A stretch of 64,000 nucleotides of DNA. Source: a virus (Duplodnaviria > Caudoviricetes). The stretch lies in the IMG/VR virus record IMGVR_UViG_3300010885_031309; one strand, 5' to 3'. Numbering within the stretch: the stretch's first letter is position 1; each line of letters begins with the position of its first letter. This document shows, in pieces, positions 33,724 through 63,866 of this stretch. A program made the position numbers and the translations under genes. The notes beneath the pieces were generated by a model. That model did not search any database and had not been told where the DNA came from. It was given only the letters and a program-made list of their open reading frames with translations.

Positions 33724-34724
33724 AAAAAATATTAATTATCACTGATAACATACATTCAGAACAGATTAATGGTGTAGTAACTACATTTCAAAATATTGAG
33801 CAACATGCCATAGCTGATGGATATACAGTTGAATATATTGACCCAACACATTTTAAACACTGTAATGCTCCGGGATATTCTGATGTTAAGCTGGCATTGC
33901 CTATTGGAATAGGAAAAAAAATTAAAAAATCAAATCCCGATCACATTCATATTGCTACTGAGGGACCAATTGGACTAGCAGCAAATCTATGGTGCTGGAA
34001 AAATAATTACAAATTTAACACTAGTTATCATAGTAAGTGGCCAGAATTTATTAAAAAGATGTATGGGATTCCAGAATTTTTAACATACTCGTATCTGCGC
34101 TGGTTTCATAATCATAGTGGAATAGTTCTTACTACCACTGATACTATTGTTAATGAGCTAAAACAGCATAAGTTTAAGAGTAATATTATTGCGTGGACAC
34201 GCGGTGTTGACAGATCAATATTTAATAGTAGTCAGCGAGATAATTCACTGAATTATAAAAGACCTATACTATTAAATGTTGGACGAGTAAGCATAGAAAA
34301 GGGACTTGAAGACTACTGTAGTTTACAATACAAAGATTGTACAAAAATAGTAGTGGGTGACGGCCCAATTAAAAATGAATTGGAAAAAAAGTATCCAGAT
34401 GTCATTTGGACTGGAACTAAAAAGGGCAGTGAGTTAGCTTATTATTATGCTAACGCTGATGTGTTTGTTTTTACCAGTGTTACAGATACTTTTGGGTTAG
34501 TAATGATAGAAAGCATAGCGTGCGGAACTCCAATAGTTGGATACCCTGTACCTGGACCACTGGACATAATAGACGCTAGAGTTGGATTTATTGACACTGA
34601 TTTAAGCGCAGCAATAGACAGAGCACTTCTATTGAATAGAACAGAAGTATTGGAAGCTAGTTATCGCTGGTCATGGGAAGAATGCTGGCGCATTTTCAAA
34701 ACTAATTTGATACCAATTAATTAG
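33720..34724 (+). CDS. agt: GT4 (GT-B) glycosyltransferase, Agt-like diacylglycerol glycosyltransferase
   Basis: QINGVVTT, IATEGPIG, TSYHSKWPE, WTRGVD, VGRVSIEKG, VVGDGP, ADVFVFTSVTDTFGLVMIESIACGTP. Confidence 0.75.
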   Translation: MKKILIITDNIHSEQINGVVTTFQNIEQHAIADGYTVEYIDPTHFKHCNAPGYSDVKLALPIGIGKKIKKSNPDHIHIATEGPIGLAANLWCWKNNYKFNTSYHSKWPEFIKKMYGIPEFLTYSYLRWFHNHSGIVLTTTDTIVNELKQHKFKSNIIAWTRGVDRSIFNSSQRDNSLNYKRPILLNVGRVSIEKGLEDYCSLQYKDCTKIVVGDGPIKNELEKKYPDVIWTGTKKGSELAYYYANADVFVFTSVTDTFGLVMIESIACGTPIVGYPVPGPLDIIDARVGFIDTDLSAAIDRALLLNRTEVLEASYRWSWEECWRIFKTNLIPIN

Positions 34725-34757: not shown

Positions 34758-34765
34758 GATAAATA
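34758..34765 (+). promoter_or_regulatory. late promoter GATAAATA heading the putative internal-protein cluster
   Basis: The same (G/C/T)ATAAATA motif recurs at 37644, 38163, 39890, 53739, 56548, 58750, 61153, 62546 and 63659, each shortly before a start codon. Confidence 0.7.
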
Positions 34766-34787: not shown

Positions 34788-37211
34788 ATGGCTAACATCA
34801 GAAAATTAATTGACATTATTAATGAAACCAGTGCAGGTGCAACTTCATCTGGAAGCGTATCGGTAGTTGAGCAACCGTTATTGAAGCAAAGTAGAGTTGA
34901 AACTCCAGAAGCTCCGCAAATACTTGAATATGGAATGTGGGAGAATAGTGTACTTGCGACCAATAAAAAATTAAAAAAGACTCGCACTAAGGCACGTGAT
35001 GTGGTCAAGAAAATATATGGCGAAGACCAACCAGACAAGCAAAGTGTGTCAGAAAACTCAAAAAAAGTAGCAAAGAAAAAGAGCGACGGTATTCTATGGC
35101 GCGTAGAGCAATCAGAAGCAACTCTAAGATATTATGTTGTCAAGGGCCATCAAAACAAAGAATACTGGACCAATAAGCTAGGGGCTTCTGACTTTAATAA
35201 TAAATCTGATGCTGAAGCAAAAGCAAATGAATTGAATAATAAAGTAGATGAAGGATTCAGTGGTGCTGCTGCAGGAGCTATTGGTGGAGCAATTTTTGGA
35301 AAATCGCCACAGGCGGCTGTAACAGGAGCTAATATTGGTAGTAAAGTACAAGACATGTTTTCTAATGAAGATGTGGCGGAAGACAGCTTACAAGAAATAG
35401 GATACGCTGACAGCCTTGATGATGCTAATTATCCAATAGATAGACTTTTAAAAATCGGTAAGTTATACGATACCATTGAGGGCAATAAAGTAATGACTGC
35501 TGCCACGGGATCAGAAAAAGTGTATTTTTTAGTAGTAGATGATCAAGTTACTGCCTTCTTGGGATTCAAAAATAATCATCTAAAAAACATAAAGAATTTT
35601 ACAAAAACTCCGGGCGTTATCAGAGCGCTGATAGGGTGTTTAGTACACAAGCATGGTCAAAAAATCATTATTTCCAATAGTGAACCACTAACATCAGACG
35701 GTAAAAAATGGGTGCTTCATCTGATACAATCCCCGCGGGGGCTAAACATAGTAGATCAAAACGGCAAGCAGATTGATAGCAGATCGCTAAAACAAGAATG
35801 GTTAGAGGCACGAAAAACTAGCATACCTGGACCTACCAGTGTAGTAATTAGCGAGAACTATGAATTTGGTAATAAATTGCGAGAAAATGAATCGTTGAGA
35901 GAAAGCAATTCATTGCTTATGCCATATCAGTTTTACGACACAAAAATTAAAAAGCAAGTTGTGGCGGAAGCTTTAGTTAATGAAATAGGATTTGCAAATG
36001 AATTAGGCAAATTGTCAATGTCTGAACAAGATATTCTGAATAATAGCATCGTTGACGGACAAATAGGACAGCGAGATGTAATGAGATTTGAAATAGACAA
36101 TAATGCATTATACTTTTTTTCTGGAAAAAATAAAATTGAGGCTCTATTATTGTTAGATGGCTCCAGATTAGCAGCAATAAAAAACTTTACTCAAAATAAA
36201 GGTTTAATTCATGGTTTGTTTAATTACGTAGTGAACATGAAGAGAAAAAAATTAAGAATTGATCCTAATGATCAGTTGTCCCCGTACGGAATAGATTGGT
36301 TACTAAAACAGATTGAACGATCAGATGGTATTAAGATCACCGATTTAAATGGAAAATCAATTAATGCTGATGAATTGAGAAATGAATGGAATAAATCTAA
36401 ATCAGATTCTGATCAAGCCCCAGGATCAATCGGTATTATAATCGGTGAATCTGCTATGGGAAAAAGATTACGAGACAATGAACGCTCATTGATGCCATAT
36501 GACATATTTGGGGTCAATAAACATATTAATAAAGAGCAAGATGTGACGGAAGGCTGGAGCAAAAAGTACAAGCGTAGTATTGATTGCTCACATCCTAAAG
36601 GATTTAGTCAACGCGCTCATTGTGCCGGAAAAAAGAAACACAACGAAAGCATTGAAATGGAAATGATTTGCCCAGATTGTAATATGTGCGAAACACATGG
36701 CAACAACATGATGGAAGTCAAACAGCGATTAGATGCAAAATGCTGGGCGGGAAAACACAAAGAAGGAACTAAGATTAAAGGTGGGGTCAGAGTTAATAAC
36801 TGTGTTCCAAACGAAAGCGTTAGTGAAGATGGAATGTCATTCGGTAATATAGCTTCTGCTTCAATTGGTGGTGGAACAAGTAGCGGCACTAGTGATGGCA
36901 CAAAAATGTTTTTGGAAACAGAAAATGAGCCTAAAGTTAGACGATACAAAGATAACTTTGGACAAGATCATTGGGAAGTTTTAGACTGGAAGGGTCATCG
37001 CGTAATAAGTTTTACTAATCGTTCAGCGGCGCACGAATATCTAAAAAAGAATTTGTATCGTTTAATTGATACTGAAGAATTAGAAGAGGGTGAAAACAAA
37101 CGCATCAAGGGTGGCGACCCATGCAGAAAAAACTATCAAATGGTAGGCATGAAGCAAAAAAACGGTAGATCAGTTCCTAACTGCGTACCAGTATCAAAAA
37201 AGAAAAAGTAA
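34788..37211 (+). CDS. modular polyprotein-like virion protein: two ~190-aa paralogous domains plus several small Cys-containing modules
   Basis: Start moved to ATG 34788 (after the late promoter). EIGYA.../EIGFA... duplicated domains; CSHPKGFSQRAHC, CPDCNMC, CWAG..NNCVP, PCRKNY..PNCVP modules. Confidence 0.75.
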   Translation: MANIRKLIDIINETSAGATSSGSVSVVEQPLLKQSRVETPEAPQILEYGMWENSVLATNKKLKKTRTKARDVVKKIYGEDQPDKQSVSENSKKVAKKKSDGILWRVEQSEATLRYYVVKGHQNKEYWTNKLGASDFNNKSDAEAKANELNNKVDEGFSGAAAGAIGGAIFGKSPQAAVTGANIGSKVQDMFSNEDVAEDSLQEIGYADSLDDANYPIDRLLKIGKLYDTIEGNKVMTAATGSEKVYFLVVDDQVTAFLGFKNNHLKNIKNFTKTPGVIRALIGCLVHKHGQKIIISNSEPLTSDGKKWVLHLIQSPRGLNIVDQNGKQIDSRSLKQEWLEARKTSIPGPTSVVISENYEFGNKLRENESLRESNSLLMPYQFYDTKIKKQVVAEALVNEIGFANELGKLSMSEQDILNNSIVDGQIGQRDVMRFEIDNNALYFFSGKNKIEALLLLDGSRLAAIKNFTQNKGLIHGLFNYVVNMKRKKLRIDPNDQLSPYGIDWLLKQIERSDGIKITDLNGKSINADELRNEWNKSKSDSDQAPGSIGIIIGESAMGKRLRDNERSLMPYDIFGVNKHINKEQDVTEGWSKKYKRSIDCSHPKGFSQRAHCAGKKKHNESIEMEMICPDCNMCETHGNNMMEVKQRLDAKCWAGKHKEGTKIKGGVRVNNCVPNESVSEDGMSFGNIASASIGGGTSSGTSDGTKMFLETENEPKVRRYKDNFGQDHWEVLDWKGHRVISFTNRSAAHEYLKKNLYRLIDTEELEEGENKRIKGGDPCRKNYQMVGMKQKNGRSVPNCVPVSKKKK

Positions 37212-37230
37212 AAATATAACAAGACTGATC

Positions 37231-37611
37231 ATGCGAGCTAAAGAATTTATATTAGAATCCAACAGTGTTGTTAAAATAAAACAGCGACTTCCTAAAAATG
37301 CAGAGTCTGCAATGACGGGTGCTCATAGAGTTGCCGGAACTCTAGATCGCACATACGACTTGAACAGAATTATGATGTTATTGGCTGGGACAGATGGTAA
37401 AAATCATACACACGCTTCTCCTCAAAGCTGGGCTGGAAAAAATAATACTGCACATCCATATACCGTAGAAGAACTAAAAATGCTTAAACATGTATATGCT
37501 CTTGCAAATATAGAATGGGATGATGTTATTGCACAAAATTCCTCTAATAAAAGCACTGAACTAGATGACACGAATAAGCGTAGTCCAGTTAACTCATTTA
37601 AGGGATATTAA
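37231..37611 (+). CDS. conserved hypothetical protein with MRAKEFILE leader
   Basis: 126-aa ORF; C-terminal SPVNSFKGY. Confidence 0.7.
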   Translation: MRAKEFILESNSVVKIKQRLPKNAESAMTGAHRVAGTLDRTYDLNRIMMLLAGTDGKNHTHASPQSWAGKNNTAHPYTVEELKMLKHVYALANIEWDDVIAQNSSNKSTELDDTNKRSPVNSFKGY

Positions 37612-37658
37612 TGTTACGCAGTGTTAAATGCAGATAGCATTTTGATAAATACTATATT

Positions 37659-38078
37659 ATGAAAACAGCAGAAATAGTATTACAAGAAAATGTTACGAGT
37701 GTTACATGGGCAATAACTTATTTCTCAGAATCTGAATTAAGAAAACCTGCGCTTAGAAGAGTAATAAGTTCAAAGGGTGGATTTGTAACACCAGATGCAG
37801 CGGAAGAATGGGCCAAGACTAACAGAGTTGAGATACAAACACTATACAAAGAGCGTAAAAAGCCAACACAAGAAGCAATAAACCCAAATAATAGAATGGA
37901 TGACATTCCAACAACTACTACGTATATGCTGTATAAAAATACGGGTAATACATGGACTCCAGTTGCAAGATATCAAAGTGAAGCTGAAGCAAGACAGGTT
38001 GGACAAGAGATGATGCAAGAACTTGGCGGTAAGTTCAAAGTTAAAAAAATACAGTATCCTGTAACTAAATATGAATGA
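37659..38078 (+). CDS. hypothetical protein with MKTAEIVLQE leader
   Basis: 139-aa ORF after GATAAATA (37644). Confidence 0.7.
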   Translation: MKTAEIVLQENVTSVTWAITYFSESELRKPALRRVISSKGGFVTPDAAEEWAKTNRVEIQTLYKERKKPTQEAINPNNRMDDIPTTTTYMLYKNTGNTWTPVARYQSEAEARQVGQEMMQELGGKFKVKKIQYPVTKYE

Positions 38079-38188
38079 TGTAAAATGCTGGTGCTTCTCT
38101 TTAGCATTAGAGTGGTTGGGTGTTGCTGTCTCGCGAACTACACTTTTATATATTATTTTTCTGATAAATACTTAAAATTGGAGTTATT

Positions 38189-38629
38189 ATGTTAGCCGAC
38201 ACGCTCAAAGTTATGTACGCTTCCACCTTTGTCTATTTCGTGAAATCGTTTGGATTTCATCATAATATTGAGGGTGAAAATTTCCCACAATACCATGAAT
38301 TTTTAAAAAACATCTATGAAGATGCACAAGATACATTAGATCCTCTTGCCGAATTAATTCGTCAATTAGATAGCTATACTCCTGGCAGTATTGCTCGTTT
38401 CTCTGAATTAAGTCAAATATCAGATCAAACAAAGATCCCACGGGCTGAATTAATGATGGCAGAATTATTCCAAGACAACCAGAAGTTGCTAGAAATGTGG
38501 AAGGCAGCATTCCCGCTAGCTGAAGAAGCAAATGAGCAAGGTATTGCTGATTTTATTGCCGGCAGAATTGATGCACATGGCAAGTGGGGTTGGCAACTAC
38601 GCAGCATTATGAAAAAGGAAAGAGCGTGA
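38189..38629 (+). CDS. dps: Dps / ferritin-like DNA-protection protein
   Basis: FHHNIEGENFPQYHEFL..IYED...D.LAELIRQL...HGKWGWQL ferroxidase pattern. Confidence 0.9.
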   Translation: MLADTLKVMYASTFVYFVKSFGFHHNIEGENFPQYHEFLKNIYEDAQDTLDPLAELIRQLDSYTPGSIARFSELSQISDQTKIPRAELMMAELFQDNQKLLEMWKAAFPLAEEANEQGIADFIAGRIDAHGKWGWQLRSIMKKERA

Positions 38630-39429
38630 AGATACGAGATTTATTAGAGAGTAAAATTCTAGTAGAAGGAGTACATGATCCCGCTATATTTAAGGCTGTG
38701 TTTGTAATTGGCGGCCCAGGTAGTGGTAAGAGTAAAGTTAGTGAATTATTGGCATTAAAATCGTTGGGTTTTGTTACTGTTAATAGCGACGAGGCGTTTT
38801 CTCACTTACTAACAAAACACGGTCTTAGTCTAAAAATGCCCCCAGAGGAAGAAACACAGCGTAGCGTTATGCGATCCCGTGCAAAAGAGATAACAGCTAA
38901 TAAAATGCAGCTTGCTCTTGACGGAAGATTGGGTGTTGTAATTGACGGAACAGGTGAAGATTACAGAAAAATAGCTGCAATTCATACAAACTTGAAAGAA
39001 ATGGGATATGAAAGTTTTTTGATCATAGTATATGCGAGTTTGGAAACAGCACTGCGTAGAAATGCAAAACGAGAGCGTAGTGTTCCAGAAACAATTGTTG
39101 AGAAAAAATGGCGCGGCGTACAAGAAAATTTGGATGAATTTTTGTTGACTTTTGAACACAGTACTATCATTGATAACAATGGAAACTTGAATGAATTAAT
39201 TCCACAGACTGAACATGTTTATAAAATGGTTGCACAGTGGTCTAAATCAGAACCCAGTAGTGATGAAGCTCAAACATGGATCAATGATCAGCTTGGTATC
39301 ACTGATGAACCCGACGAATACGATGATGTTGAAGACGACGATATTGAAGACGATGATATTGAAGATGATGAGCATGAAGATGACACTGACAGTGCTGAAG
39401 ATAACGATACTAATACAAAATTAAAATGA
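38626..39429 (+). CDS. P-loop kinase (zeta-toxin/AAA_33-like) with acidic tail
   Basis: GTG start overlapping the dps stop (GTGA). GVHDPAIFKAVFVIGGPGSGKS, VNSDE, VVIDGTG, RNAKRERSVP. Confidence 0.8.
   Translation: MKIRDLLESKILVEGVHDPAIFKAVFVIGGPGSGKSKVSELLALKSLGFVTVNSDEAFSHLLTKHGLSLKMPPEEETQRSVMRSRAKEITANKMQLALDGRLGVVIDGTGEDYRKIAAIHTNLKEMGYESFLIIVYASLETALRRNAKRERSVPETIVEKKWRGVQENLDEFLLTFEHSTIIDNNGNLNELIPQTEHVYKMVAQWSKSEPSSDEAQTWINDQLGITDEPDEYDDVEDDDIEDDDIEDDEHEDDTDSAEDNDTNTKLK
39331..39390 (+). repeat. degenerate 15-bp tandem repeat x4 encoding EDDDI-type acidic tail
   Basis: gaagacgacgatatt / gaagacgatgatatt / gaagatgatgagcat / gaagatgacactgac. Confidence 0.75.
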
Positions 39430-39845
39430 ACCACTGGATGACTTATGTTAAGGCTGCATATGAAGTCATTATGATGGCAGAGTCCAAGTCATCAGTGATT
39501 TTGGATCACGAGACCGAGGCATTTGTAGTTCACACATTTGCCAGATATATGGAACAACCTAATATACCTACTGATGTAATCGCAATCAAAATGATGACTG
39601 CTGTTAGTGAGCGTGGCGAAAAGCAAAAACACGCATTTCAACAAATTGCAGAAGAATGTTTGCTTATAAATGGGTTAGAATTGAATAGTCGTCGCTGGCC
39701 AACTAAAAACTACTACAGCGATATGGGCAAACTAGCACTGGAGCATCGTGCCTGGGTTGACCGTCCTCCAGAATTATTATACGAAAAAATTGCATATCAA
39801 TTTGACAACATCAGCAGAGTGTTGCACTCTATTAGACACGTCTAA
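39426..39845 (+). CDS. hypothetical helical protein
   Basis: 139-aa ORF, ATGA overlap. Confidence 0.7.
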   Translation: MNHWMTYVKAAYEVIMMAESKSSVILDHETEAFVVHTFARYMEQPNIPTDVIAIKMMTAVSERGEKQKHAFQQIAEECLLINGLELNSRRWPTKNYYSDMGKLALEHRAWVDRPPELLYEKIAYQFDNISRVLHSIRHV

Positions 39846-39903
39846 TTTACTCGTTCAGTTCTAGTAGAACAACTCAATCTGTGTTTGTGCATAAATACTA
39901 ATT

Positions 39904-40479
39904 ATGCATATATCAGAAGTCACCGAACAAAACACTGTTGATGATATTTCACCAGAGTTGCAACAGTTAATTGATATCGCCGGCAAAACTGGCGATAAGA
40001 TGGCTGCATCTAGCAAATACAAATATCAATTGTTTGTTCCACGCAAAACTGCGGTGTATGAAGACTTCAAGCCAAATGCAGAGCGCTGGACTAGTACCGC
40101 GATAAAACGCGGAGATACATACACTAGCGAGTGGGTAGAATGGTGTCATTTTAACATGCCACGATGGATAGATAATACTGGAACACTCTATCGTATAGAG
40201 CCTGGAGCAAAAATTCTGCACATTGGCAGTGATCGTCGTGCTATTGAGATTGCTAAATTATTCGGTAGACAATACAAAACTAGAAATTACGAACGATTAG
40301 GAAACTATCCGTGGAAAGAGTTAGGACTGTATTTTGATGCCATACATTATCCGGCAAGATTACGTCGTAGATATGACAACATATTGATGAGTTCATGGGA
40401 TGTAGAAAGCACTGCCTGGTATAACACTAACAAACTCACTGTTATTAAACAAGTGCAAGTTAAGGCGCGAGGTTGGTAG
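39904..40479 (+). CDS. hypothetical protein with MHISEVTE leader, possible ADP-ribosyltransferase-like fold
   Basis: WTS...SEWVEWC...FDAIHY...SWDVESTAW. The fold call is tentative. Confidence 0.6.
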   Translation: MHISEVTEQNTVDDISPELQQLIDIAGKTGDKMAASSKYKYQLFVPRKTAVYEDFKPNAERWTSTAIKRGDTYTSEWVEWCHFNMPRWIDNTGTLYRIEPGAKILHIGSDRRAIEIAKLFGRQYKTRNYERLGNYPWKELGLYFDAIHYPARLRRRYDNILMSSWDVESTAWYNTNKLTVIKQVQVKARGW

Positions 40480-40480
40480 T

Positions 40481-42226
40481 ATGAACATATTAGAAGTTAC
40501 ACAACAAGATACTGTTACATTACAAGACTTATATGGCGGAAATTACCCAGACGATACTGAGTTATTTTGGCAATTCGTAACTCCTGGTGACTTAACTGTT
40601 CCGTTGACAATAGAGCGACTAAGTTCACACAAAATTAAATCAATATTTGAAATTCAATATCATGTTGATGACATAGAAGATTTATTGTTTCGTCTGCGAG
40701 ATGAACAAAAAGAAACACTAGCACAGTATAGAGCAAGTACGCAGCTTGCTAATAGCATAGTAATTATTGCTGCTGGAAAAATCATTGACGGCAATCATAG
40801 AGCGTTGGCGGCAGCATTAAACAACATGTCTATCAGAGCCGTTGATTTATCCGAATTAGATGAAACAAGAACGGATGAAATGTTGAATGAATTAAACTTC
40901 AATAAATCGGTTCAATACACTAGAGACGCAAAACCCAAATCTCCCATGATATCAGATGAGATTAGCTTTACGGCAGAAATTCCAATCAATGATGTGATCA
41001 CTGATAAATTAAATGTTGTTTTTGATGTCTATAATGTCTACAAAAAAGAAAAAGCATTGGAAATATCATTTTCCGTCAATGATGACTGGGAGCCTACTGG
41101 TCGTGGAAACTTTGTGTTGATATTATCAACTGTAAAGTCTATAGTTTCTAATGAATTGCCAAAAATATTGAATGCTGATCAGCAAATTGTAAGACTTGTT
41201 TTTACTGCCGCTCGTGACCAGTCAGGAAGAGTAAAACACTATCGCAACACTGTTGTTCCATTTATCACCACTCTTCTAAACAAAACAAATAACACTGGTG
41301 GTTGGGTATACAGTGAAGATAATAAATCTGAACTACACAATATTCGGTTTGTATGGGAAAAAAACGCACAGCAAATTCCAGTGGATGAAATGGCAATGAA
41401 AAGTTACACACCACTCGGTGATTTTAGTGCACCGGGACCATTCAAAGACCCAGATTACAAATTGGTAGTTCATCCTACACACATTAAGAAGGTTGAAAGC
41501 TTCTTTAAGAACACCAACCAAGATTTTAGATTTTTCGTATCCAACTTACCTAAATTAAGAAAATATCGCGAGAGTGGAGAAGCAACCGCAGAAGAACTGG
41601 AAAAAATATTTGGACCAAAAATCTCACAGCAAATACTACAAGGGTCAGATGAAGCCATAACAGTAGTGTTTATGGGCAACTATGGTCTTAATAGAGTTAT
41701 GATGACTCCCTGGACTATGGCACATAGAATAGGACATGCCATCGCCGCCAGTGACGGTTATGGTACTAATACTCAGAGATCTATTCCAGAATGGCCAAGA
41801 TTGCGAGATGAATTCAGAAAGAGCACAGAAAAAATACTATCAACTTATTATGGAGTCTATTCTTCTATTATGCCATATGGCCGTTATTCTTATATTGAAG
41901 ATGCTAAAAGAGCATTGTATTACGGGCTTGGCACAACAAAGTCAAGTAGAGAACGCAACTTAAACACTTCAACTGAATTTATATATGAACAGTTAGCTCT
42001 TTTTATTTTAAAGGGCACTGTAGTTCTGAATCCGCTGCCAGTGAGCGTTGGGTACGGTCGTGTAGTAGGATGGAAGAACAAATCATACGAAAAGTATTTG
42101 AACATTAAATCAGAATTTCGCGATGAACCAGCGAGACAGCAAGCATCACAAAAATTAGCACATGAGTTGAACGGTTTACTGAACGATTTCTTATGGGCTG
42201 CTGTTGGTCGTGTGTTCATTATGTAA
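40481..42226 (+). CDS. multidomain protein: ParB/Srx-like domain, unknown domain, zincin-like HRxxH domain
   Basis: IIDGNHRALAA; TPWTMAHRIGHAI; domains separated by LNE| and VDE| sites. Confidence 0.65.
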   Translation: MNILEVTQQDTVTLQDLYGGNYPDDTELFWQFVTPGDLTVPLTIERLSSHKIKSIFEIQYHVDDIEDLLFRLRDEQKETLAQYRASTQLANSIVIIAAGKIIDGNHRALAAALNNMSIRAVDLSELDETRTDEMLNELNFNKSVQYTRDAKPKSPMISDEISFTAEIPINDVITDKLNVVFDVYNVYKKEKALEISFSVNDDWEPTGRGNFVLILSTVKSIVSNELPKILNADQQIVRLVFTAARDQSGRVKHYRNTVVPFITTLLNKTNNTGGWVYSEDNKSELHNIRFVWEKNAQQIPVDEMAMKSYTPLGDFSAPGPFKDPDYKLVVHPTHIKKVESFFKNTNQDFRFFVSNLPKLRKYRESGEATAEELEKIFGPKISQQILQGSDEAITVVFMGNYGLNRVMMTPWTMAHRIGHAIAASDGYGTNTQRSIPEWPRLRDEFRKSTEKILSTYYGVYSSIMPYGRYSYIEDAKRALYYGLGTTKSSRERNLNTSTEFIYEQLALFILKGTVVLNPLPVSVGYGRVVGWKNKSYEKYLNIKSEFRDEPARQQASQKLAHELNGLLNDFLWAAVGRVFIM

Positions 42227-42240
42227 ACTAAATAGCTATT

Positions 42241-44784
42241 ATGAAAACTAATGAGATAACTTTAACAGAAGCAGCAATGAATCCAAGTGAGTTCGGGAAT
42301 GCTATTGCTCAGTCGGAGAATATGGGTGTACTTGTGGGATTTGAGTTTGAGTTTTGTTTTCCTAAAAATAAAATACAGGAACTTTTCTTATCTAAAGTTG
42401 GCGACTCAATTGATAAACAAGTCAGATATATACTTTCAATAAAATTAATTCGCGATAACGTAGCTAAATTAGACATAATATCTTTTTCCAAAATTATTAC
42501 TTCTGTAGATAAAAAACCCACACTTGAAGTGTATAAGAATTATATTGATAGTGTTTTATCTTCATTTATAAATGAGTACAATAAAACTACCGCAGAATTA
42601 TTGAAGCTGATAAATGGTGCAATTTATAATAAATACGATATAAACAATGTAGTATCATTGGGTGCAAAATTCAAATGGCTAAACCCAATACTTCAATTAG
42701 AGCATAGAAAACAAGAAATTCAATATATTGCATTGCTATCTGATATTATCAGATCAAATCTGCTTGATACTATTTTTGTGCAGAAAATTAATGCTAAAAA
42801 TTTAAATTTTAAAAATCAAGCAAGAAAATTAGCAGACGCGGCAAGATTTGCACTTTCATTACTGAAAACAGCGGACTTCATAACAGCGATAGAGCGTGAA
42901 TTTGGTAATGTCAGTGACGACGATTATGCAGACAATTATACGATTGATCATAAAGGGTTGCAATCAGAATTTCGTGTTACTAGTTTCTCTGAACTTATCA
43001 AAAACCCAGGATGGTATGAAATGGGCGCAGTAATGAAGATGTTGTGCGAAAAATATCTAAATACGAAACCAATATTGTTTAATTCCTACCATGAACGTAA
43101 AAAAGATAGTACACATTGGTATATAGAACCTGATGGTAGTTTACGACCAACTAGCGAAGAAATATCATTGGAGTTTGTTAGCCCTCCAATGAAGCCGCGT
43201 GATGCTATACAGGCACTGCAAATTTTTTATCAAATGGCCAGTGATTATGAATTCAGAACGTCCAAAGAAAGAAAAACTGGATGTCACATAAACGTAAGCA
43301 TTCCTGATAAAATAGATTTGATGAAGTTAGCACTATTTACTGGCGATCAATATATTCTACAGCAGTTTGGTCGCGAGAACAATTCATATGCTCGTAGTGT
43401 TTATGCTGAGCTAAAGTCAAAAAAAATTAGTTCTGCGCTATATTCTATTGACGATAAGTTCACTTTGAAAACTATTGCTGACATAGCAGAAAGGACCATG
43501 GATTCTCATTCTGCCAGTATAAGTGCAGAATCTGATAAAAAATTCATAAGCTTTCGTGGAGTAGGTAGTGATTACTTATCGCAATTTCAAAATGTGGTCA
43601 ACGCTAGTGCTAGATTCGTGCGATCAATGATGATAGCCAGTGATCCTACTCTTTATAGAGACGACTATCTCAAAAAACTTTATACATTATTGAAGAAATA
43701 TCCATCTACAACAACATCGGCGCAGCGTACACGAAAAAAAGTTGAACGAATTAGAACTCTGCGTAATACTATCGAGAGTGAAGGAATTCCAGTTCTAATA
43801 ATAGATGCTTATGTTAGAGATGGAGCTAAAAAGCTCAAAGACGCATTTACATCAGACAGTTCATTTTTATATAACCTAATTCCAGGTAATACCAAAACCA
43901 ATGTTGGATTTATTGTTCAAGTAGATAAAAAACAAGAGGTCATTGACAATTTGATATCTGCTATTAGTACTAATCAGAATGACGTTAAATATTATAATTC
44001 ACCATGGGACAAAGATGAGACAGTAACTGCCATAACAAATAGTGCTGATGGTGTTTATCGTGTAATTTTTTATCCAAAAACTATGCTTGGGTACAACCAA
44101 TTTAGGAAGAGACTACAAAAAGGTCCGGACAAATCACTAAATCATATACGAGTTCAGATGCCAGGATCCTCTATCATGCGATATTATGGGTGGAGACTAA
44201 ATTCATTTAGTATGATGCCTGGCAGTAGTGAATTTGCTACTAAGCTGACTGCTAATATCAAAGCAGAAATTGGAAATGTACTAGATGATCTGAAAAAAAC
44301 CAAAACCAGAAGGCGAAAGCTTCCGGAATCTGTGAGCAAAGCACCCATATACTATTTTGCGTATGGAATGCTAACTAGCGACAGAATAATGAATCAATAT
44401 GCTGCCAATAAAATTGGATCAGCAGCGTTGTCTGGATATAAATTTGAATTACTTGGACATGCCAATGTGATTAGAGATAATCAACATACATGTCAGGGTG
44501 TGTTGTGGCAAATTGACGCAGAAACATTACAAGAGTTGGATGCATTAGAAGGATATCCCGACTACTATACCAGAAAAAAGGTTCGCGTCGTTAGCAAAAA
44601 CAAAACATATAACGCCTGGGTATACACTATGACTGACTCTAGTAGAGCAAATTCATATGAACACGGACATCCATCTAATAATTATGTTAATACCATTGCT
44701 GCTGGGTATCGTAGTGCTGGAATGTCATTCAATCAATTGAACGCGGCAATAAGAGAACTAAACAGTAGATTTGAAGAACAATGA
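42241..44784 (+). CDS. putative amidoligase (COOH-NH2 ligase type) fused to C-terminal gamma-glutamylcyclotransferase
   Basis: VGFEFEF, IEPDGSL, LEFVSPP, TGCHINVS, SFRGVG. C-terminal YYFAYGML...LDALEGYPDYY (GGCT/AIG2). Confidence 0.85.
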   Translation: MKTNEITLTEAAMNPSEFGNAIAQSENMGVLVGFEFEFCFPKNKIQELFLSKVGDSIDKQVRYILSIKLIRDNVAKLDIISFSKIITSVDKKPTLEVYKNYIDSVLSSFINEYNKTTAELLKLINGAIYNKYDINNVVSLGAKFKWLNPILQLEHRKQEIQYIALLSDIIRSNLLDTIFVQKINAKNLNFKNQARKLADAARFALSLLKTADFITAIEREFGNVSDDDYADNYTIDHKGLQSEFRVTSFSELIKNPGWYEMGAVMKMLCEKYLNTKPILFNSYHERKKDSTHWYIEPDGSLRPTSEEISLEFVSPPMKPRDAIQALQIFYQMASDYEFRTSKERKTGCHINVSIPDKIDLMKLALFTGDQYILQQFGRENNSYARSVYAELKSKKISSALYSIDDKFTLKTIADIAERTMDSHSASISAESDKKFISFRGVGSDYLSQFQNVVNASARFVRSMMIASDPTLYRDDYLKKLYTLLKKYPSTTTSAQRTRKKVERIRTLRNTIESEGIPVLIIDAYVRDGAKKLKDAFTSDSSFLYNLIPGNTKTNVGFIVQVDKKQEVIDNLISAISTNQNDVKYYNSPWDKDETVTAITNSADGVYRVIFYPKTMLGYNQFRKRLQKGPDKSLNHIRVQMPGSSIMRYYGWRLNSFSMMPGSSEFATKLTANIKAEIGNVLDDLKKTKTRRRKLPESVSKAPIYYFAYGMLTSDRIMNQYAANKIGSAALSGYKFELLGHANVIRDNQHTCQGVLWQIDAETLQELDALEGYPDYYTRKKVRVVSKNKTYNAWVYTMTDSSRANSYEHGHPSNNYVNTIAAGYRSAGMSFNQLNAAIRELNSRFEEQ

Positions 44785-45506
44785 AAACAAAAGAAATAAT
44801 TTCAGAAGTTAAACTGCCAGCGACACTTCGGAGTATTCTTTATAACAAGGGATATAAATTTCTTGGAGCTGGAGTTGAACACAGTGTGTGGCAGGGTCCA
44901 GACAACTATGTTTACAAAATATTGCCTCCGCGATTTATCAAGGAAGAAACAGCAAAAGAACTTCACTTTGGCAGTCTAAGCCCAGAAGACTTGTACATGA
45001 CAGCATCTCAGCGTTGTTTTATCAGTTGGGTTGAGTATTGTCAACAACATCAATCAAATAATTTCTTGCCATTTTTTGACGACTGGCAACCATTCACGCA
45101 CAAGTTTATTCGCAACGACAAAACTTACTACTACATGTATATACAGTGTAGAACAGAAAGATTATTTCAGTTGTCACTAGAATGGAGCAGAGCATTACAA
45201 GAATTGGCACATGATATTACAGTTGGAAAACTACCCAAAGATCGTTTATATGATAGATTAAAATATGATTTATACGATCAGCGAGTATACGAGGTAATTA
45301 GTCATATGGGAGCAAAAGAGACAGGCATATTCTATGACACGATAGTTGAACTAGAACAGATAGCAAAAACCAACAGTTATAGACTTGATCTACACGGTGA
45401 TAATTTTATGTTGGGCAGCGATGGACATATAGTAATCAATGATCCATTTTTTATTAGATACAGCAATGCTTCTACTCTTGGAACAAATTATTTTAATATG
45501 AGCTAA
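44781..45506 (+). CDS. protein-kinase-fold enzyme
   Basis: Gly loop FLGAGVEHSVW, VYKI lysine, catalytic DLHGDNFM, VINDP. Confidence 0.8.
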   Translation: MKTKEIISEVKLPATLRSILYNKGYKFLGAGVEHSVWQGPDNYVYKILPPRFIKEETAKELHFGSLSPEDLYMTASQRCFISWVEYCQQHQSNNFLPFFDDWQPFTHKFIRNDKTYYYMYIQCRTERLFQLSLEWSRALQELAHDITVGKLPKDRLYDRLKYDLYDQRVYEVISHMGAKETGIFYDTIVELEQIAKTNSYRLDLHGDNFMLGSDGHIVINDPFFIRYSNASTLGTNYFNMS

Positions 45507-45557
45507 TGTGGATTTATATAGAGTTAAACAGTTAATTCAGACAAAAGGGACAACACA

Positions 45558-46472
45558 ATGAAGATCAGCGATTTTCGTATTCACAGCACTGACAAGTTAG
45601 ACGCCATGCTAGCCGAGTGTGTCAGCTTGATACTTGAGCATCAACAACAGGACAGTAAACATTGGGGCATGGTTGCCGCATGTGTATTGGATATGGACAA
45701 TCGCGTCGTGTATGGAGTTAATCATGCCATGCCAGATGGCACCCGCAAACACGCAGAACGAGTGGCTATTGACAACTACCGTGAACAATATGGATCAAAT
45801 CTGGAACATTGTATTGTAATAACTACACTGAGTCCGTGTAGCGAAGATATGGATGAACGACATGGTGATAGTTGCACCAATTTAATCAATGAAGTTGGAA
45901 TTCACAAAGTCTATTGTGGTTATAAAGATCCAAGTCAGCAACACAGTGATGCGTATTTACACAAGCACTTTCATGTTAAATCTACTCGCAATCCAAAATT
46001 GAATGAACTCTGTAAGAAACTGGCAGACACATTTTTAAAATCGGACGACGAGCAATTGACTGAAAATTTTCCTGGAAAAAATAAAAACAATATATACACT
46101 TTATTAGTAAACAGTGTTGGAGCTGGCCCATTTGATGGCGGATGCGTTATTTTTGCCAGAGCACTACAAATGATTTATGGTGGAGAGATAGTGGCATTGA
46201 TTGGATATGCACAGAGTTCTGTTGCATCCAAAAATCCAACTGCACAACATGCTGCACTGTTAGTTGACGGTCGTATGATAGATGCGGACGGAATCAAGTC
46301 ACAAGACGAGTTTGTTCGTAATTTTGAAAATAATGAATTAAAACATGTGGGTGGAAAAATAATCGGAATAAGACCACTGCACAATTCGGATCTATCAGAA
46401 GCACCTCGTGACGAACAACTATCGGCAAAAATATCCAAACTTTTAAAGTCCTCTAGTGCCAAAATAAGTTGA
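45558..46472 (+). CDS. zinc deaminase (RibD/cytidine deaminase-like) fused to a papain/transglutaminase-like Cys-His-Asp domain
   Basis: KHAERVA; TLSPC-x11-C; VYCGYKDP. Second domain DGGCVIFARAL...HAALLVDGRMIDADG. Confidence 0.75.
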   Translation: MKISDFRIHSTDKLDAMLAECVSLILEHQQQDSKHWGMVAACVLDMDNRVVYGVNHAMPDGTRKHAERVAIDNYREQYGSNLEHCIVITTLSPCSEDMDERHGDSCTNLINEVGIHKVYCGYKDPSQQHSDAYLHKHFHVKSTRNPKLNELCKKLADTFLKSDDEQLTENFPGKNKNNIYTLLVNSVGAGPFDGGCVIFARALQMIYGGEIVALIGYAQSSVASKNPTAQHAALLVDGRMIDADGIKSQDEFVRNFENNELKHVGGKIIGIRPLHNSDLSEAPRDEQLSAKISKLLKSSSAKIS

Positions 46473-46807: not shown

Positions 46808-47073
46808 TGAGCAGCAGCATTCAAGCCATTCACGACGACGAAGCTCAATGGGCCTACATTCGTCGTGTGGCAAACATTCCTGAAGTGTCATGGAGTGTTT
46901 ATAGCAGAGAGGCGACCGTTGCAAAACAGGGTTATACTGAACATGTTTATACCGGTAAACAGCTTAAGCTGTATGTCAAGCAACAGTGTGAATTGAATGA
47001 CTTGAAGCAGCGCCATTCCGCTGAATGGAAAGAACTTGCACTACTACTTGATTTGGAGAACAAATACGGATGA
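46807..47073 (+). CDS. hypothetical protein
   Basis: 88-aa ORF coupled to both neighbours. Confidence 0.6.
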   Translation: MSSSIQAIHDDEAQWAYIRRVANIPEVSWSVYSREATVAKQGYTEHVYTGKQLKLYVKQQCELNDLKQRHSAEWKELALLLDLENKYG

Positions 47074-49268: not shown

Positions 49269-49395
49269 ATTAAAGATTAAAACAGCAGAAAATTATGGAT
49301 TTAGAGTATTAGTTGTATGGGAATCGGATTTTAGAAAAGACAAGAACAAAACAATTGAAAAGGTGACAGAATGGATTGTGAATGGACAAAAGTAA
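49216..49395 (+). pseudogene. C-terminal relic of a Vsr-like homing endonuclease
   Basis: Frame +1 relative to polB, no start codon: HQKISGNRTAAEVWKKDRLKIKTAENYGFRVLVVWESDFRKDKNKTIEKVTEWIVNGQK*. Confidence 0.8.
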
Positions 49396-56406: not shown

Positions 56407-56556
56407 ATGAAGCTTGTTGAAGATATTTATAAACAGATTTGGTTCTGGGTTGATGATGCTGATGACAGCATCATTCTTAGCCCACGGTTTGATTATGAGG
56501 CGGACGCACTCTTATGGAAAAATCGTTATGTAAATGATGATGCCGAGCATAAATAA
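56407..56556 (+). CDS. 49-aa small protein (paralog B), not in the ORF track
   Basis: MKLVEDIYKQIWFWVDDADDSIILSPRFDYEADALLWKNRYVNDDAEHK*. Confidence 0.7.
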   Translation: MKLVEDIYKQIWFWVDDADDSIILSPRFDYEADALLWKNRYVNDDAEHK

Positions 56557-56579: not shown

Positions 56580-58718
56580 ATGAGATATAAAGACTTTTCA
56601 ATCAATCAAATAAATGAGATTCGTATGAATCCACGTGCTTTTGATAAGTTTATCAGAAGCGATGCGTCTAGTAACATCAAATGTGGATTTGAGGCAGAAT
56701 TGTATTTTACAGACATGCCAAATTACGAAGATGATGAACCAGAGCCCGATTACAGTGAGGATGGAAGAGCCAGATCAATAGATAATATTTGTGATTTTTT
56801 TGATGATAGCCGTCGTCTAAGATCAACATTACAACAACGCTACGAAGATTGGCAATCCGATAAAATGGATGAAACATGGAAAAATGAACGAGAGGATCTA
56901 ATCAGACAATATATTGAAGATAACGATTGGGACTGGGATGAAAAAATAACAGAGCATCTTGTAGATTTAGGCTTATCCGAATCAGATGCTGAACATGTAG
57001 TACTTGTATCAAAACTATCAAAAACAGAGCAGAGTGAATTATTCACATATGATGAATCCATTAAGTTGTATAAAGAAGCCAAACAAAATGCAGGAACAGA
57101 ACTTGATGATGAAGTCAATAGTGCTATAAGATTTAGAGATTATAATTACAGAACAGCGTATGATGAGTTTGTTCAAGAGAAAACTGAAGATGGTGATTAC
57201 GACGAAGAATCATTTTTAATTGATATTGGTATTCGCAGATATAGCGATGTTCCGAATGTATTTTCGGAAGTTCAATGGCCATATTTGAACACATCATCAA
57301 CTGAGTTTGATGAAACTACTGGATACTGTTTTCAAGCCGCACAAGAACTGGCATATGATTTACAAACATCAATGATGCCTATTGTAGTTAATGGAAAACA
57401 ATACGCGCCAGAAGCAGTAGCTGGTGAAAGATACAAGAGTGTCAGAAGAAATTACGATACACGTCCTAACTTATGGATCGTAGAACCAGATGGAAGTTTG
57501 ACAGAGCCTGATTATCCAGGCCCGCATATGGGTGCAGAGATTATTGCACCTCCAATACCACTAGACCAAGTAGAAACTGTATATAAAACTTTTTGTGATT
57601 GGGCACAGAAATATTCTGCCTACAGTAAAGAAAGCACTGGATTACATATTAATGTAAGTATTGCTGATATTCCATTTGAACAGATTGATTACTTAAAGTT
57701 GGCTTTACTGCTTGGCGATCAGTATGTTGGTCAACAGTTTGATAGAGAGCTTGCAGATTACTGCTACAGTAGTATGTTAAAAATACGAGACAGTTTTCAG
57801 TTAATGGACATTGAACAACTGATGATTGACTTGAGACACAATCTACAAGATAATGCAGAAAAAATATTAAGACGTAAGACTGGCGCGGAAAAAAGATCCA
57901 GTATTCATCTTAAAGATGCATGGAATGCTATTGAATTTCGTGCAGCGGGTGGGGAAAAATACTTCAAAGAAGAAAATTTACCATTGGTATTAAACACTAT
58001 AAAAAGATTTGCATATACTACTTATATTGCTTCAAATTCAGCGTTAGAGAAAAATACATACGCGAAAAAATTAATATCACTGCTTTCATCCATATTGGTT
58101 GGTCGTAAATCTGTTACGAAATATTACGATCCAACATTGCCAGACAACGCAAAACAGCCAACAGTATTTGTTGATAAACCACAGCGCGGATTTAGACAGA
58201 TAACTGTTTCTCCTGAGTACAGTAAAGATCTTATTAATATTTTTACCCGTTATGCAATCGGTGATTTGCCACAAGCTGCACTAAAGAGTTTTATTAAACA
58301 GGCTCAACTACAGCGCAGTTTATCAGCAGATAAAAAATATTGGTGGAAGGTTGAATTTAATTCCTCTTCTATAGAAGTTGTTGCCAGCAGTGAACAGGAA
58401 GCAAAAAACAATGCACGGGCGGAATACGGTTGGAGAGCTTCAGATGTGAGAGATCTTCAAATGAAGGCAACAGTGCTGCGTCCATACGAAGATGAGAGTG
58501 GTATAACACTATCTACTACTGGTGGAGGAGGAATTCTCCCAGCAGAAGATGACAACGGAAATTGGGAAGTATACAATCGTAATAATAATATTACAGTGTA
58601 TAGATTTCAGGCCGATGATCAATCTGATGCACGGCGTGTAGCACAGTTATGGGCATTCAGGAATAATATGACACCTAATTTAGTCAATAATTATTCTGTC
58701 AGAGCATCCTCTACTTAA
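56580..58718 (+). CDS. second putative amidoligase with acidic insert and small C-terminal domains
   Basis: CGFEAEL, VEPDGSL, AEIIAPP, TGLHINVS, KLALLLGDQYV, IEFRAAG; MRYKDFSINQINE leader. Confidence 0.85.
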   Translation: MRYKDFSINQINEIRMNPRAFDKFIRSDASSNIKCGFEAELYFTDMPNYEDDEPEPDYSEDGRARSIDNICDFFDDSRRLRSTLQQRYEDWQSDKMDETWKNEREDLIRQYIEDNDWDWDEKITEHLVDLGLSESDAEHVVLVSKLSKTEQSELFTYDESIKLYKEAKQNAGTELDDEVNSAIRFRDYNYRTAYDEFVQEKTEDGDYDEESFLIDIGIRRYSDVPNVFSEVQWPYLNTSSTEFDETTGYCFQAAQELAYDLQTSMMPIVVNGKQYAPEAVAGERYKSVRRNYDTRPNLWIVEPDGSLTEPDYPGPHMGAEIIAPPIPLDQVETVYKTFCDWAQKYSAYSKESTGLHINVSIADIPFEQIDYLKLALLLGDQYVGQQFDRELADYCYSSMLKIRDSFQLMDIEQLMIDLRHNLQDNAEKILRRKTGAEKRSSIHLKDAWNAIEFRAAGGEKYFKEENLPLVLNTIKRFAYTTYIASNSALEKNTYAKKLISLLSSILVGRKSVTKYYDPTLPDNAKQPTVFVDKPQRGFRQITVSPEYSKDLINIFTRYAIGDLPQAALKSFIKQAQLQRSLSADKKYWWKVEFNSSSIEVVASSEQEAKNNARAEYGWRASDVRDLQMKATVLRPYEDESGITLSTTGGGGILPAEDDNGNWEVYNRNNNITVYRFQADDQSDARRVAQLWAFRNNMTPNLVNNYSVRASST

Positions 58719-63642: not shown

Positions 63643-63683
63643 GCATTCATAGCTAGATGATAAATAGTTGTTGGAGTATACAC

Positions 63684-63866
63684 ATGAAAATCAATGAAGT
63701 TGTTCAATCCAAAAGTAGGGCTATCTTTGAAAGTCTTAGCTACGATTCGGATCATCCTTTTAGCAAGTCCACGCTGATGGAAATTGCTGATACAGTTTCA
63801 AATAGCGAATTTGAACCAGCGATGACCGCCGAGCAATTCTTTGAATGGTTGGATGGTGTCAAGTGA
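63684..63866 (+). CDS. small acidic protein, possible antitoxin
   Basis: GGAG RBS; MKINEVV leader; C-terminal TAEQFFEWLD. Confidence 0.55.
   Translation: MKINEVVQSKSRAIFESLSYDSDHPFSKSTLMEIADTVSNSEFEPAMTAEQFFEWLDGVK

Follow-up and report, generated by a model that had tools for sequence, protein, structure and literature searches.

We analysed a 64,000-nucleotide stretch of viral DNA (IMG/VR record IMGVR_UViG_3300010885_031309; Caudoviricetes), hereafter the window, in which otherwise unrelated proteins begin with a common N-terminal leader peptide. The window holds 64 genes, is nearly all plus-strand coding and has a GC content of about 36%. Its 5' part consists of myovirus tail genes, among them those for gp25-like and gp6-like baseplate wedge proteins and, with the opening tail genes, a 4705-amino-acid (aa) FG-GAP/LCCL fibre-like giant; its 3' part holds replication genes, namely a family-B DNA polymerase (two genes), an endonuclease and an exonuclease. 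Eleven genes carry the leader, nine of them within an uninterrupted eleven-gene run at 34788-46472. The leader is enriched and conserved as a peptide, and it marks virion proteins in a cultured relative, Agrobacterium phage Atu_ph07. Packaging of these proteins through a leader of the type used by phage T4 is, in our view, likely. The features of the block, and the two leader genes outside it, are listed below, with a slash marking the junction past the Glu.

34759..34765, plus strand: ATAAATA late-promoter-like motif that heads the cargo block, 29 nt upstream of the 34788 start.
34788..37211, plus strand: 807-aa multi-module protein, leader MANIRKLIDIINE/TS at 34788-34826.
37231..37611, plus strand: 126-aa protein, leader MRAKEFILE/S, no Pfam or PHROG family.
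37659..38078, plus strand: 139-aa protein, leader MKTAEIVLQE/N, ATAAATA at 37645.
38189..38629, plus strand: ferritin/Dps-like protein (Pfam Ferritin, 2.7e-15), no leader, ATAAATA 25 nt upstream.
38626..39429, plus strand: P-loop kinase of the zeta-toxin/AAA_33 type (Pfam), 14-residue leader (V/M)KIRDLLESKILVE/GVHDP.
39426..39845, plus strand: 139-aa protein, no leader, conserved in synteny in L013, a syntenic 341-kb relative of the window phage.
39904..40479, plus strand: 191-aa protein, leader MHISEVTE/Q, ATAAATA at 39891.
40481..42226, plus strand: 581-aa three-domain protein (domains about 10-133, 192-295 and 335-581), degenerate leader MNILEVTQQD.
42241..44784, plus strand: 847-aa amidoligase-like plus GGACT protein, leader MKTNEITLTE/A, with a KLPE/SV site before GGACT.
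44781..45506, plus strand: 241-aa protein-kinase-fold protein, leader MKTKEIISE/V, structural matches from residue 10.
45558..46472, plus strand: 304-aa deaminase with an unknown C-terminal domain, partial leader MKISDF, QLTE/NF site at E169.
56580..58718, plus strand: 712-aa amidoligase-like paralogue, leader MRYKDFSINQINE/I, ATAAATA at 56549.
63684..63866, plus strand: 60-aa protein, leader MKINEVV..AIFE/S, ATAAATA at 63660.

The N-termini that a preliminary description of this DNA had listed as leaders were all found where it had placed them. The tight pattern ^M[KR]..[DE][IFVLM] begins 8 of the 64 genes, against 0.24 expected from its internal rate (Poisson 2e-10), and it follows an internal Met in only 1 of 274 instances. 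Column-preserving shuffles of the N-termini gave a mean of 1.9 and a maximum of 7 matches, and none of 20000 shuffles reached 8; the motif is thus enriched over shuffled controls. Two further leader genes have H or N at position 2 (MHISEV.., MNILEV..). The description had also held that the leader ends in (I/L/V)-x-E, which stood in part: the M[KR]..[DE]Φ start (Φ, hydrophobic) is clearly enriched, but the loose criterion of [ILV]-x-E anywhere in the first 16 residues is satisfied by 18 of 64 genes where about 15% are expected, and is weak by itself. A site of this type lies inside the first 18 residues of 7 of the 11 window leaders. Within the window the same leader residues are written with differing codons (GAA, GAG and GAT; ATA, ATT and ATC; AAA, AAG, CGA and AGA), and because the codons vary, selection must act on the leader peptide, and a signal at the RNA level is ruled out.

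The leader shares one property of a T4-type capsid-targeting sequence (CTS), being a short N-terminal peptide of about 10-19 aa common to unrelated folds. Where this could be checked, recognizable folds begin directly past the Glu, as had been claimed: the kinase core starts at G15, the structural matches of the 44781 protein start at residue 10, and the match of a GNAT-like module in the 807-aa protein starts at residues 205-214, past E203. In the AlphaFold2 model of the kinase (predicted local distance difference test score, pLDDT, 84.5), residues 3-8 form a lower-confidence leader helix, the LVE/G site lies in coil, the core begins at G15 and the first strand follows at residue 23. The distribution of the leader among genes is also selective. 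The DNA polymerase, endonuclease and exonuclease genes have no leader, again in line with the preliminary description, and neither do known tail, sheath, fibre and baseplate proteins in the window and in Atu_ph07.

Leader genes share an upstream element with structural genes. At least 15 of the 22 plus-strand copies of ATAAATA lie 11-34 nt upstream of a start codon. The motif heads runs of leader genes, the remaining leader genes overlapping or abutting the gene upstream, so that most leader genes follow an ATAAATA or are coupled to one, as first described. The motif also precedes baseplate and structural genes at 1416, 1919, 20558, 24748 and 53753, the last of which encodes a homologue of a 'virion structural protein', and no copy was found before the DNA polymerase or nuclease genes of the window. 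From its placement, ATAAATA appears to behave as a late-promoter-like element shared by structural and leader genes.

Conservation of the leader in protein families brings it close to T4. The kinase at 38626 belongs to a metagenomic family of more than 7000 homologues, and M-[R/K]-x-x-[E/D]-Φ, mostly as MRANEF[IV]xE, opens about 100 of the 120 best matches, which are 45-75% identical to it. Homologues also occur in Pelagibacter phage HTVC008M, Methylophilales phage Melnitz, RsoM2USA and Atu_ph07. To place the leader junction without reference to the leader itself, we anchored it on the motif G-[VI]-[NH]-D-P, where the conserved kinase core begins. Among 112 kinase-family leaders the residue at P1 was E in 99%, that at P3 was V, L or I in 98%, P4 was F in 51% and P5 was E in 59%, with P2 free; the conserved features are thus the M-[RK]-x-x-[ED]-Φ block and a Phe or other hydrophobic residue at P4. 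Leaders of 13-16 residues retain both the N-terminal block and the Φ-x-E site and carry their insertion in between. A second, unrelated family behaves likewise. About 30 of 33 homologues of the 581-aa protein begin M[RK]xx[ED]Φ, with starts of the form MRAxEF[ILT]xE, and the window's MNILEVTQQD is a degenerate form of the family leader MRAKEFITEN. The CTS of T4 internal protein IPIII is MKTYQEFIAE (bioRxiv 10.1101/2021.01.19.427310); in the T4 CTS, targeting requires residues 4 and 7, and processing by the protease gp21 requires residues 8 and 10 (PMC9026906). The E-F-[IVL]-x-E of the families described here matches the EFIAE of IPIII, and the invariant leader positions fall on the T4 processing positions.

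The phage of the window is, by sequence, very divergent from cultured giant phages. A DNA-level search of cultured phages returned no near-identical match to it, and an exact-word search of IMG/VR returned none. Its baseplate wedge protein is about 31-34% identical to the counterparts in Phosso, Atu_ph07, GAP32, PBECO4 and SCTP-2, all giant phages of the T4 superfamily. Among these, Atu_ph07 encodes homologues of T4 gp20, gp21 and gp23, and its virion proteome has been published (Attai et al. 2018, PMC6102473; Tables S3 and S5). We applied the pattern derived from the window, with Gln also allowed at position 5, to the annotated starts of the 490-kb Atu_ph07 genome, and compared virion detection of leader and other genes; the length-stratified test used one open reading frame (ORF) per protein and positional bins.

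All annotated genes: 24/28 leader genes in virions vs 116/686 others (odds ratio 29, one-sided Fisher 1.9e-14).
Families (leaders removed, clustered by blastp at 1e-3): 12/16 vs 116/686 (p 8e-7).
ORFs of at least 100 aa: 22/27 vs 104/557 (p 1.4e-11).
ORFs of 100-200 aa: 6/10 vs 37/377 (p 2e-4).
ORFs of 200-400 aa: 13/13 vs 39/127 (p 9e-7).
ORFs of at least 400 aa: 3/4 vs 28/53 (not significant).

The same leader pattern thus strongly predicts virion detection in a cultured relative, and isolated leader genes (gp381, gp487, gp548, gp561 and gp672) were detected amid undetected neighbours. Individual proteins link the two phages. Atu_ph07 gp53 (779 aa), a virion protein, contains the kinase as its second domain, entered through ...SEVTE/GVNDKHIFK, and gp53 and ten adjoining genes all begin M-[R/K]-W-x-Q-L-x-E. 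The homologue of the window's 847-aa protein, gp196, adjoins the portal gene, begins MRWQDISSKKLTE and is likewise a virion protein. A second leader type, M-[S/A]-x-[I/L]-R-K-[F/L]-[I/L]-x-[I/L]-[I/L]-[N/S]-E, is found at 34788 in the window, at L013:6700 and in Atu_ph07 gp206 (MSIRKFLNIINE/SY) and gp594 (MSDLRKFINILNE/SY); both of the latter are virion proteins, and one of the two is encoded beside the prohead protease gene. Related motifs occur in the head module itself, where the scaffold begins METGFEKLLE/G, gp205 begins MDFRQIRALLE/G and the propeptide of the major capsid protein ends ...APLME/NATAGATSSGNV. The 414-residue scaffold contains 30 [ILV]-x-E triplets, 4.6 times background (p 8e-12), a density to be expected if the protease degrades the scaffold as gp21 degrades gp22. 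A prohead protease is encoded by Atu_ph07 (gp204) and by an IMG/VR record that bears the leader kinase (G001; PF03420, 4.6e-45). The latter was the one match to PF03420 in five kinase-bearing IMG/VR records, the other four being fragments of 18-54% and uninformative. Virions of phAPEC6 contain the prohead protease gp227c, and the related coliphage 121Q gives a bubblegram signal for internal head proteins (PMC7247149).

One could suppose that the leader reflects gene expression, for example efficient initiation or late mRNAs with an A-rich start, or that the proteins detected are abundant late contaminants. Starts in MK- and A-rich second codons are indeed common in AT-rich genomes, and the Atu_ph07 preparation, which was not gradient-purified, held RecA, SSB and terminase. 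The codons of the leader vary while its residues stay conserved, however, and highly expressed late structural genes do not have the pattern. The co-occurrence of residues was not reproduced by column-preserving shuffles, the same motif recurs internally at domain borders, and among proteins of 200-400 aa every leader protein was detected, compared with fewer than a third of the others. On this evidence we regard an expression or contaminant origin as very improbable.

A different proposal would make the leader the recognition peptide of a dedicated modifying enzyme, following the logic of ribosomally synthesized and post-translationally modified peptides. Such a role could draw on the several radical-SAM proteins of Atu_ph07 and on the ATP-grasp, amidoligase and GGACT genes of the window, which could modify peptides. 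In the window, in L013 and in the IMG/VR loci examined, however, there is no one enzyme that accompanies the leader, and the Cys, Ser or Thr core usual in such substrates is missing from it; packaging also accounts better for the finding of these proteins in virions and for the resemblance to the T4 CTS. We give this proposal hardly any weight.

We propose instead that the leader genes encode virion cargo and that the leader is a propeptide of 9-16 residues acting like the T4 CTS. It would consist of an amphipathic N-terminal block, M-[K/R]-x-x-[E/D]-[F/I/L/V]-[I/V/L], and a hydrophobic-x-Glu site. Its genes would be transcribed from T4-type late promoters (ATAAATA) alongside the structural genes. 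As the prohead assembles, the amphipathic block would attach the protein to its scaffolding core, and a prohead protease of the gp21 type would cut past the Glu and so free the enzyme inside the head. The cargo, made up of two kinases (one P-loop, one of protein-kinase fold), GNAT-like modules, a deaminase, an amidoligase with GGACT and possibly an ADP-ribosyltransferase, would most likely leave the head together with the DNA and modify components of the host soon after infection begins. Docking on the core, cleavage past the Glu, location in the head, ejection and the effect on the host are steps that we infer. The preliminary description had proposed that the enzymes are packaged in the virion, and this part of it draws support from the Atu_ph07 detection data and the T4 match. 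Its further suggestion, that the enzymes are delivered at infection to pre-empt host defence, is a conjecture. As a whole, a CTS-like leader with protease release and ejected cargo is the best explanation available, and we put its probability at about two in three.

Several observations weigh against this CTS-like interpretation. The leaders MNILEVTQQD and MKISDF are degenerate and have no Φ-x-E nearby. Neither cleavage products nor neo-N-termini have so far been seen in these phages. In 80 marine IMG/VR kinase loci leaders are sparse (24 of 1324 ORFs), and because they are rare there, the leader system would be lineage-specific and not general to phages that carry the kinase. The junction Glu could belong to the kinase fold, an argument that does not extend to the other modules. 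The four pattern-bearing Atu_ph07 genes that went undetected in virions are those with the least canonical leaders. The Atu_ph07 preparation was purified by polyethylene glycol precipitation only and ribonucleotide reductase was detected too, along with the proteins named above; part of the association could for this reason reflect co-purifying abundant late proteins. The enrichment of Φ-x-E in the scaffold is partly compositional, that protein being a coiled coil, and a gp21-type protease in the window phage is presumed by analogy with T4-superfamily relatives alone. Finally, the Atu_ph07 proteome does not separate head from tail or whiskers.

This last point leaves room for another destination: the leader might direct proteins to the tail, the baseplate, the whiskers or an assembly site in the cytoplasm, or might be a docking helix that stays in place. 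Atu_ph07 and its relatives bear elaborate hairs and whiskers (PMC6102473), and the window block adjoins tail and baseplate genes, not head genes. The conserved positions nevertheless match the T4 head CTS and its protease site residue for residue, and Glu motifs are shared by the Atu_ph07 scaffold, major capsid protein propeptide and protease-adjacent proteins. Known tail, sheath, fibre and baseplate proteins do not carry the leader, and kinases, GNATs and deaminases would make poor structural parts of a tail. A destination other than the head is accordingly improbable.

Whether the protease also acts inside the cargo is a separate question. The protease would probably also split strings of modules into single enzymes, because the linkers end in the same hydrophobic-x-Glu motif as the leaders. 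The internal sites noted earlier (LQE/IG, VNE/IG, VTE/GW, LNE/LN, VDE/MA, LPE/SV and LTE/NF) are all present. A module that stands behind a leader in one phage can stand behind an internal linker in another. The Cys-rich module of the 807-aa protein is internal in the window (DVTE/GW) and N-terminal in L013 (MKAHEIVSE/SW) and in P0106, P0107 and P0111 (MRANEFITE/AW), and the kinase is N-terminal in the window and internal in Atu_ph07 gp53. Some homologues of the 581-aa protein have its module 1 next to a leader; the rest place GNAT, NUDIX, GH19 or unknown modules ahead of it, with junctions that read ...VWE/, ...MKE/, ...LDE/ or ...EFITE/. Homologues of the leader proteins add NUDIX, GH19 and ASCH modules. 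If leader and linker junctions are chemically equivalent, recombination could shift a module from the start of a protein to its interior, or back, and it would still be packaged and released.

The sites themselves appear to be maintained. In the 581-aa family, whose alignment has a mean identity of 16%, D302 and E303 occupy two of the seven columns that hardly vary, and in the AlphaFold2 model of the window protein (mean pLDDT 72) the low-confidence linkers 134-191 and 296-317 hold E137 and E303. The LPE before GGACT is kept in the orthologue though the surrounding linker is not, and an [IL]TE junction is also kept. In Atu_ph07, gp53 has a predicted mass of 87 kDa and was most abundant in gel band 9, together with proteins of 18-23 kDa (about 20 kDa), whereas bands 1-4 hold the peak of 16 of the 20 virion proteins larger than 60 kDa, and others of 72-139 kDa run in bands 1-3. 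Predicted cuts at VTE/G, LTE/L, LNE/L and ITE/T would yield fragments of 28, 23, 14 and 17 kDa, which fit bands 8, 9, 11 and 12, where gp53 was seen. These low-resolution band data suggest cleavage of gp53 at its internal sites.

Alternatively, the leader would target the virion while the internal Φ-x-E linkers are fusion scars or recombination joints, the multi-domain proteins staying intact. Some internal linkers do look like relics of leaders, as in ...NEFITE/SLQQTTL of P0143, modules clearly move between genes, and Atu_ph07 gp54 (56 kDa) and gp196 (58 kDa) run at or above full size. Scars would not readily account for two nearly invariant residues in a disordered linker of so divergent a family, for an LPE that outlasts its surroundings, or for an 87-kDa protein that peaks at about 20 kDa in bands that fit its predicted fragments. 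In T4, moreover, gp21 cuts core proteins internally and Alt at both ends (PMC9026906). We therefore consider scars unlikely, and dicing of multi-domain cargo by the protease plausible, with a chance that approaches even. That the proteins are cut into single domains, as the preliminary description had it, is thus suggested by conserved sites in disordered linkers, by modules that swap positions and by the behaviour of gp53. The broader form of the idea is a polyprotein strategy of a double-stranded DNA phage, in which one leader loads a string of enzymes, the head protease cuts the Φ-x-E linkers and the modules recombine freely; we advance it tentatively, at somewhat less than even odds.

Several known systems resemble this one in part. 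For T4 it is established that proteins bear a CTS which gp21 removes, that Alt is packaged and that variable T-even proteins carry CTS-like leaders, and the CTS as a general device of T4-like phages has been a speculation (PMC9026906). The window genes share with T4 an N-terminal propeptide of about 10-19 residues on unrelated proteins, with E-F-[IVL]-x-E, Glu at P1 and an aliphatic residue at P3. They share what look like late genes, a phage lineage with head genes of the gp21, gp22 and gp23 type, and an ADP-ribosyltransferase (ART)-type enzyme among the cargo (Alt in T4, an ART-like candidate in the window). T4 packages a handful of mostly small basic proteins in this way, whereas the window has at least 11 tagged genes in 64 kb; large enzymes and multi-domain proteins, known here from sequence, make up most of its cargo, and the site recurs at their linkers. 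Compared with T4, the spacing is shortened by one residue (MRxxEF instead of MKTYQEF), and a second leader type coexists with the first.

The polyvalent proteins of phages and conjugative elements (Iyer et al. 2017, PMC5512222) are likewise multi-domain, with two to 15 effector-type domains per polypeptide, are encoded among late genes and are predicted to be packaged and injected with the DNA; kinase, ART, GNAT, NUDIX and lysozyme domains and the like are found in them. Four window proteins, of 807, 581, 847 and 304 aa, are multi-domain in the same sense, and two window proteins are nearest to the Kinase-PolyVal and ART-PolyVal families. For polyvalent proteins, processing by their own metallopeptidase or by autoproteolysis was proposed and no common N-terminal signal was described (PMC5512222); the window cargo, in contrast, is organised by a CTS-like leader and protease-type linkers, and much of it is single-domain. 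Pfam and PHROGs searches of the leader proteins found no peptidase and no polyvalent hallmark domain (MuF, ArdC or DarB-like helicase).

The inner-body and ejection proteins of phiKZ-like phages and SPN3US are also numerous and head-packaged, are extensively cleaved after Glu by a T4-related protease and lose propeptides (Thomas et al. 2012; PMC5694885, PMC7411985, PMC10052503). Their propeptides, however, are long and are not known to share an N-terminal decapeptide, and these phages form a separate lineage with a virion RNA polymerase and a phage nucleus. Their cleavage motif is reportedly S/A/G-x-E. The Dar proteins of phage P1 and the virion RNA polymerase of N4 are, similarly, capsid-loaded enzymes delivered with the DNA, against host defences or for transcription, but their loading depends on specific partner proteins or internal regions and not on a short, cleavable and transferable tag.

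In the mostly open-access literature we found no MRANEF-type leader or CTS in Rak2-like, Atu_ph07-like or marine phages, and a survey of jumbo phages mentions no leader (PMC7824862). The mechanism is known from T4; its scale, its enzyme cargo and its polyprotein form in the window phage appear unreported. The leader consensus, its metagenomic spread over thousands of proteins, its predictive value in Atu_ph07 and the protease-site linkers of multi-enzyme cargo likewise appear to be unreported so far. If the CTS-like interpretation is correct, a regular expression and a protease-site rule would identify the proteins injected by a large, mostly uncultured group of giant phages, a set otherwise invisible without virion proteomics. 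Location and timing, in the first seconds of infection, could be assigned to thousands of metagenomic 'hypothetical' kinases, and likewise to acetyltransferases, ADP-ribosyltransferase-like proteins, deaminases, NUDIX enzymes and amidoligases. It would explain more than 100 unassigned proteins in the Atu_ph07 virion and would supply natural leaders for loading foreign proteins into non-T4 capsids. Should the polyprotein reading also hold, phage heads would be able to process polyproteins, and a very large, mostly uncultured clade of jumbo phages in the T4 superfamily would have an arsenal that can evolve rapidly and be predicted from sequence alone.

The proteins of the block differ in how far their functions can be assigned. 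Of the labels first given to the cargo, those of kinases, deaminase and amidoligase (with GGACT) hold and ART-like is a moderate lead; 'ParB-like' and 'peptidase-like', applied to the 581-aa protein, found no support from Pfam or Foldseek. Its IIDGNHRALAA motif is no more than a resemblance, Pfam matched none of three pieces of the protein, and Foldseek with the whole model against the PDB returned nothing significant and no peptidase fold. Domain 192-295 is weakly GNAT-like, and the internal sites LNE/LN and VDE/MA lie at E137 and E303, respectively.

The 807-aa protein contains two GNAT-like modules (35397-35969 and 35985-36551), a Cys-rich module (36552-36827) with the signature WSKKYKRSIDC..PKGFSQRAHC, and a C-terminal module; its linkers end LQE/IG, VNE/IG, VTE/GW and VSE/DG. 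The GNAT-like fold is matched with a template modelling (TM) score of about 0.6. Past the leader (34827-34870) the protein reads TSAGATSSGSVSV, and its L013 relative reads SSVGATASGNVAT. This stretch closely resembles the sequence past the putative propeptide cut of the Atu_ph07 major capsid protein gp215 (NC_042013.1 172733-173962), E/NATAGATSSGNVAV, and it also resembles the tail of gp53, ITE/TSSAGSTGAGNVAT. Judged by these likenesses, a stretch of this type may be an extended recognition element for the protease or core, or may mimic the N-arm of the capsid protein.

The C-terminal half of the 37659 protein is homologous to the C-terminus of the leader gene L013:8286. The ferritin/Dps-like gene that follows, inside the block, is kept in synteny in L013, and its product may be a DNA-binding or iron-handling late protein. 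The kinase gene has a GTG start, backed by the L013 orthologue. The 40 C-terminal residues of the kinase form a strongly acidic low-complexity tail (..DEPDEYDDVEDDDIEDDDIEDDEHEDDTDSAEDNDT..), disordered in the model, in place of which homologues have C-terminal extensions that differ among them and can reach about 250 residues. The structural neighbours of the 39904 protein are AcrIF11-ART, ART-PolyVal, RES and PARP (feature score 0.85-0.87, TM 0.44-0.51), and by these model comparisons an ADP-ribosyltransferase-superfamily fold is possible.

Pfam matches in the 847-aa protein are GGACT (3e-16) and Amidoligase_2 (5e-4, below the curated cut-off); its orthologue in L013 is L013:16668, and no relatives were found in IMG/VR. 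The 56580 protein is 28% identical over about 240 aa to L013:16668, and because it and the 42241 protein both match this shared homologue, the two are taken to be paralogues. The 44781 protein is nearest to the T7-kinase and Kinase-PolyVal clusters (feature score 0.94-0.97), and its orthologue begins MKSNEFLSE/S. In the 45558 protein, residues 27-121 match dCMP_cyt_deam_1 (Pfam, 6.5e-15), a cytidine/dCMP deaminase.

Other features of these genomes lie outside the block. Just upstream of it, at 32833-34724, are a RimK-like ATP-grasp ligase and a glycosyltransferase; these, together with the amidoligase-like proteins at 42241-44784 (fused to GGACT) and 56580-58718, resemble a system for peptide or gamma-glutamyl ligation and removal that would be partly virion-borne. 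A subtilisin-type (S8) peptidase is encoded at 26149-27576, beside the giant fibre gene, and is kept in L013 (L013:1406-2827); Atu_ph07 gp329, detected in virions, is a 139-kDa protease of the S8 type and not a maturation protease of the gp21 type. The family-B DNA polymerase is split between 47070-49268 (PHROG positions 11-579) and 49371-50390 (577-852), with extra sequence at the end of the first gene and the start of the second that is compatible with a split intein. In Atu_ph07, two unannotated ORFs on the minus strand (NC_042013.1 315248-315526 and 333031-333468; 92 and 145 aa) begin with the canonical leaders MRLFDLFE and MRPFDFDE and are probably missed virion-cargo genes that lay outside the mass spectrometry search database.

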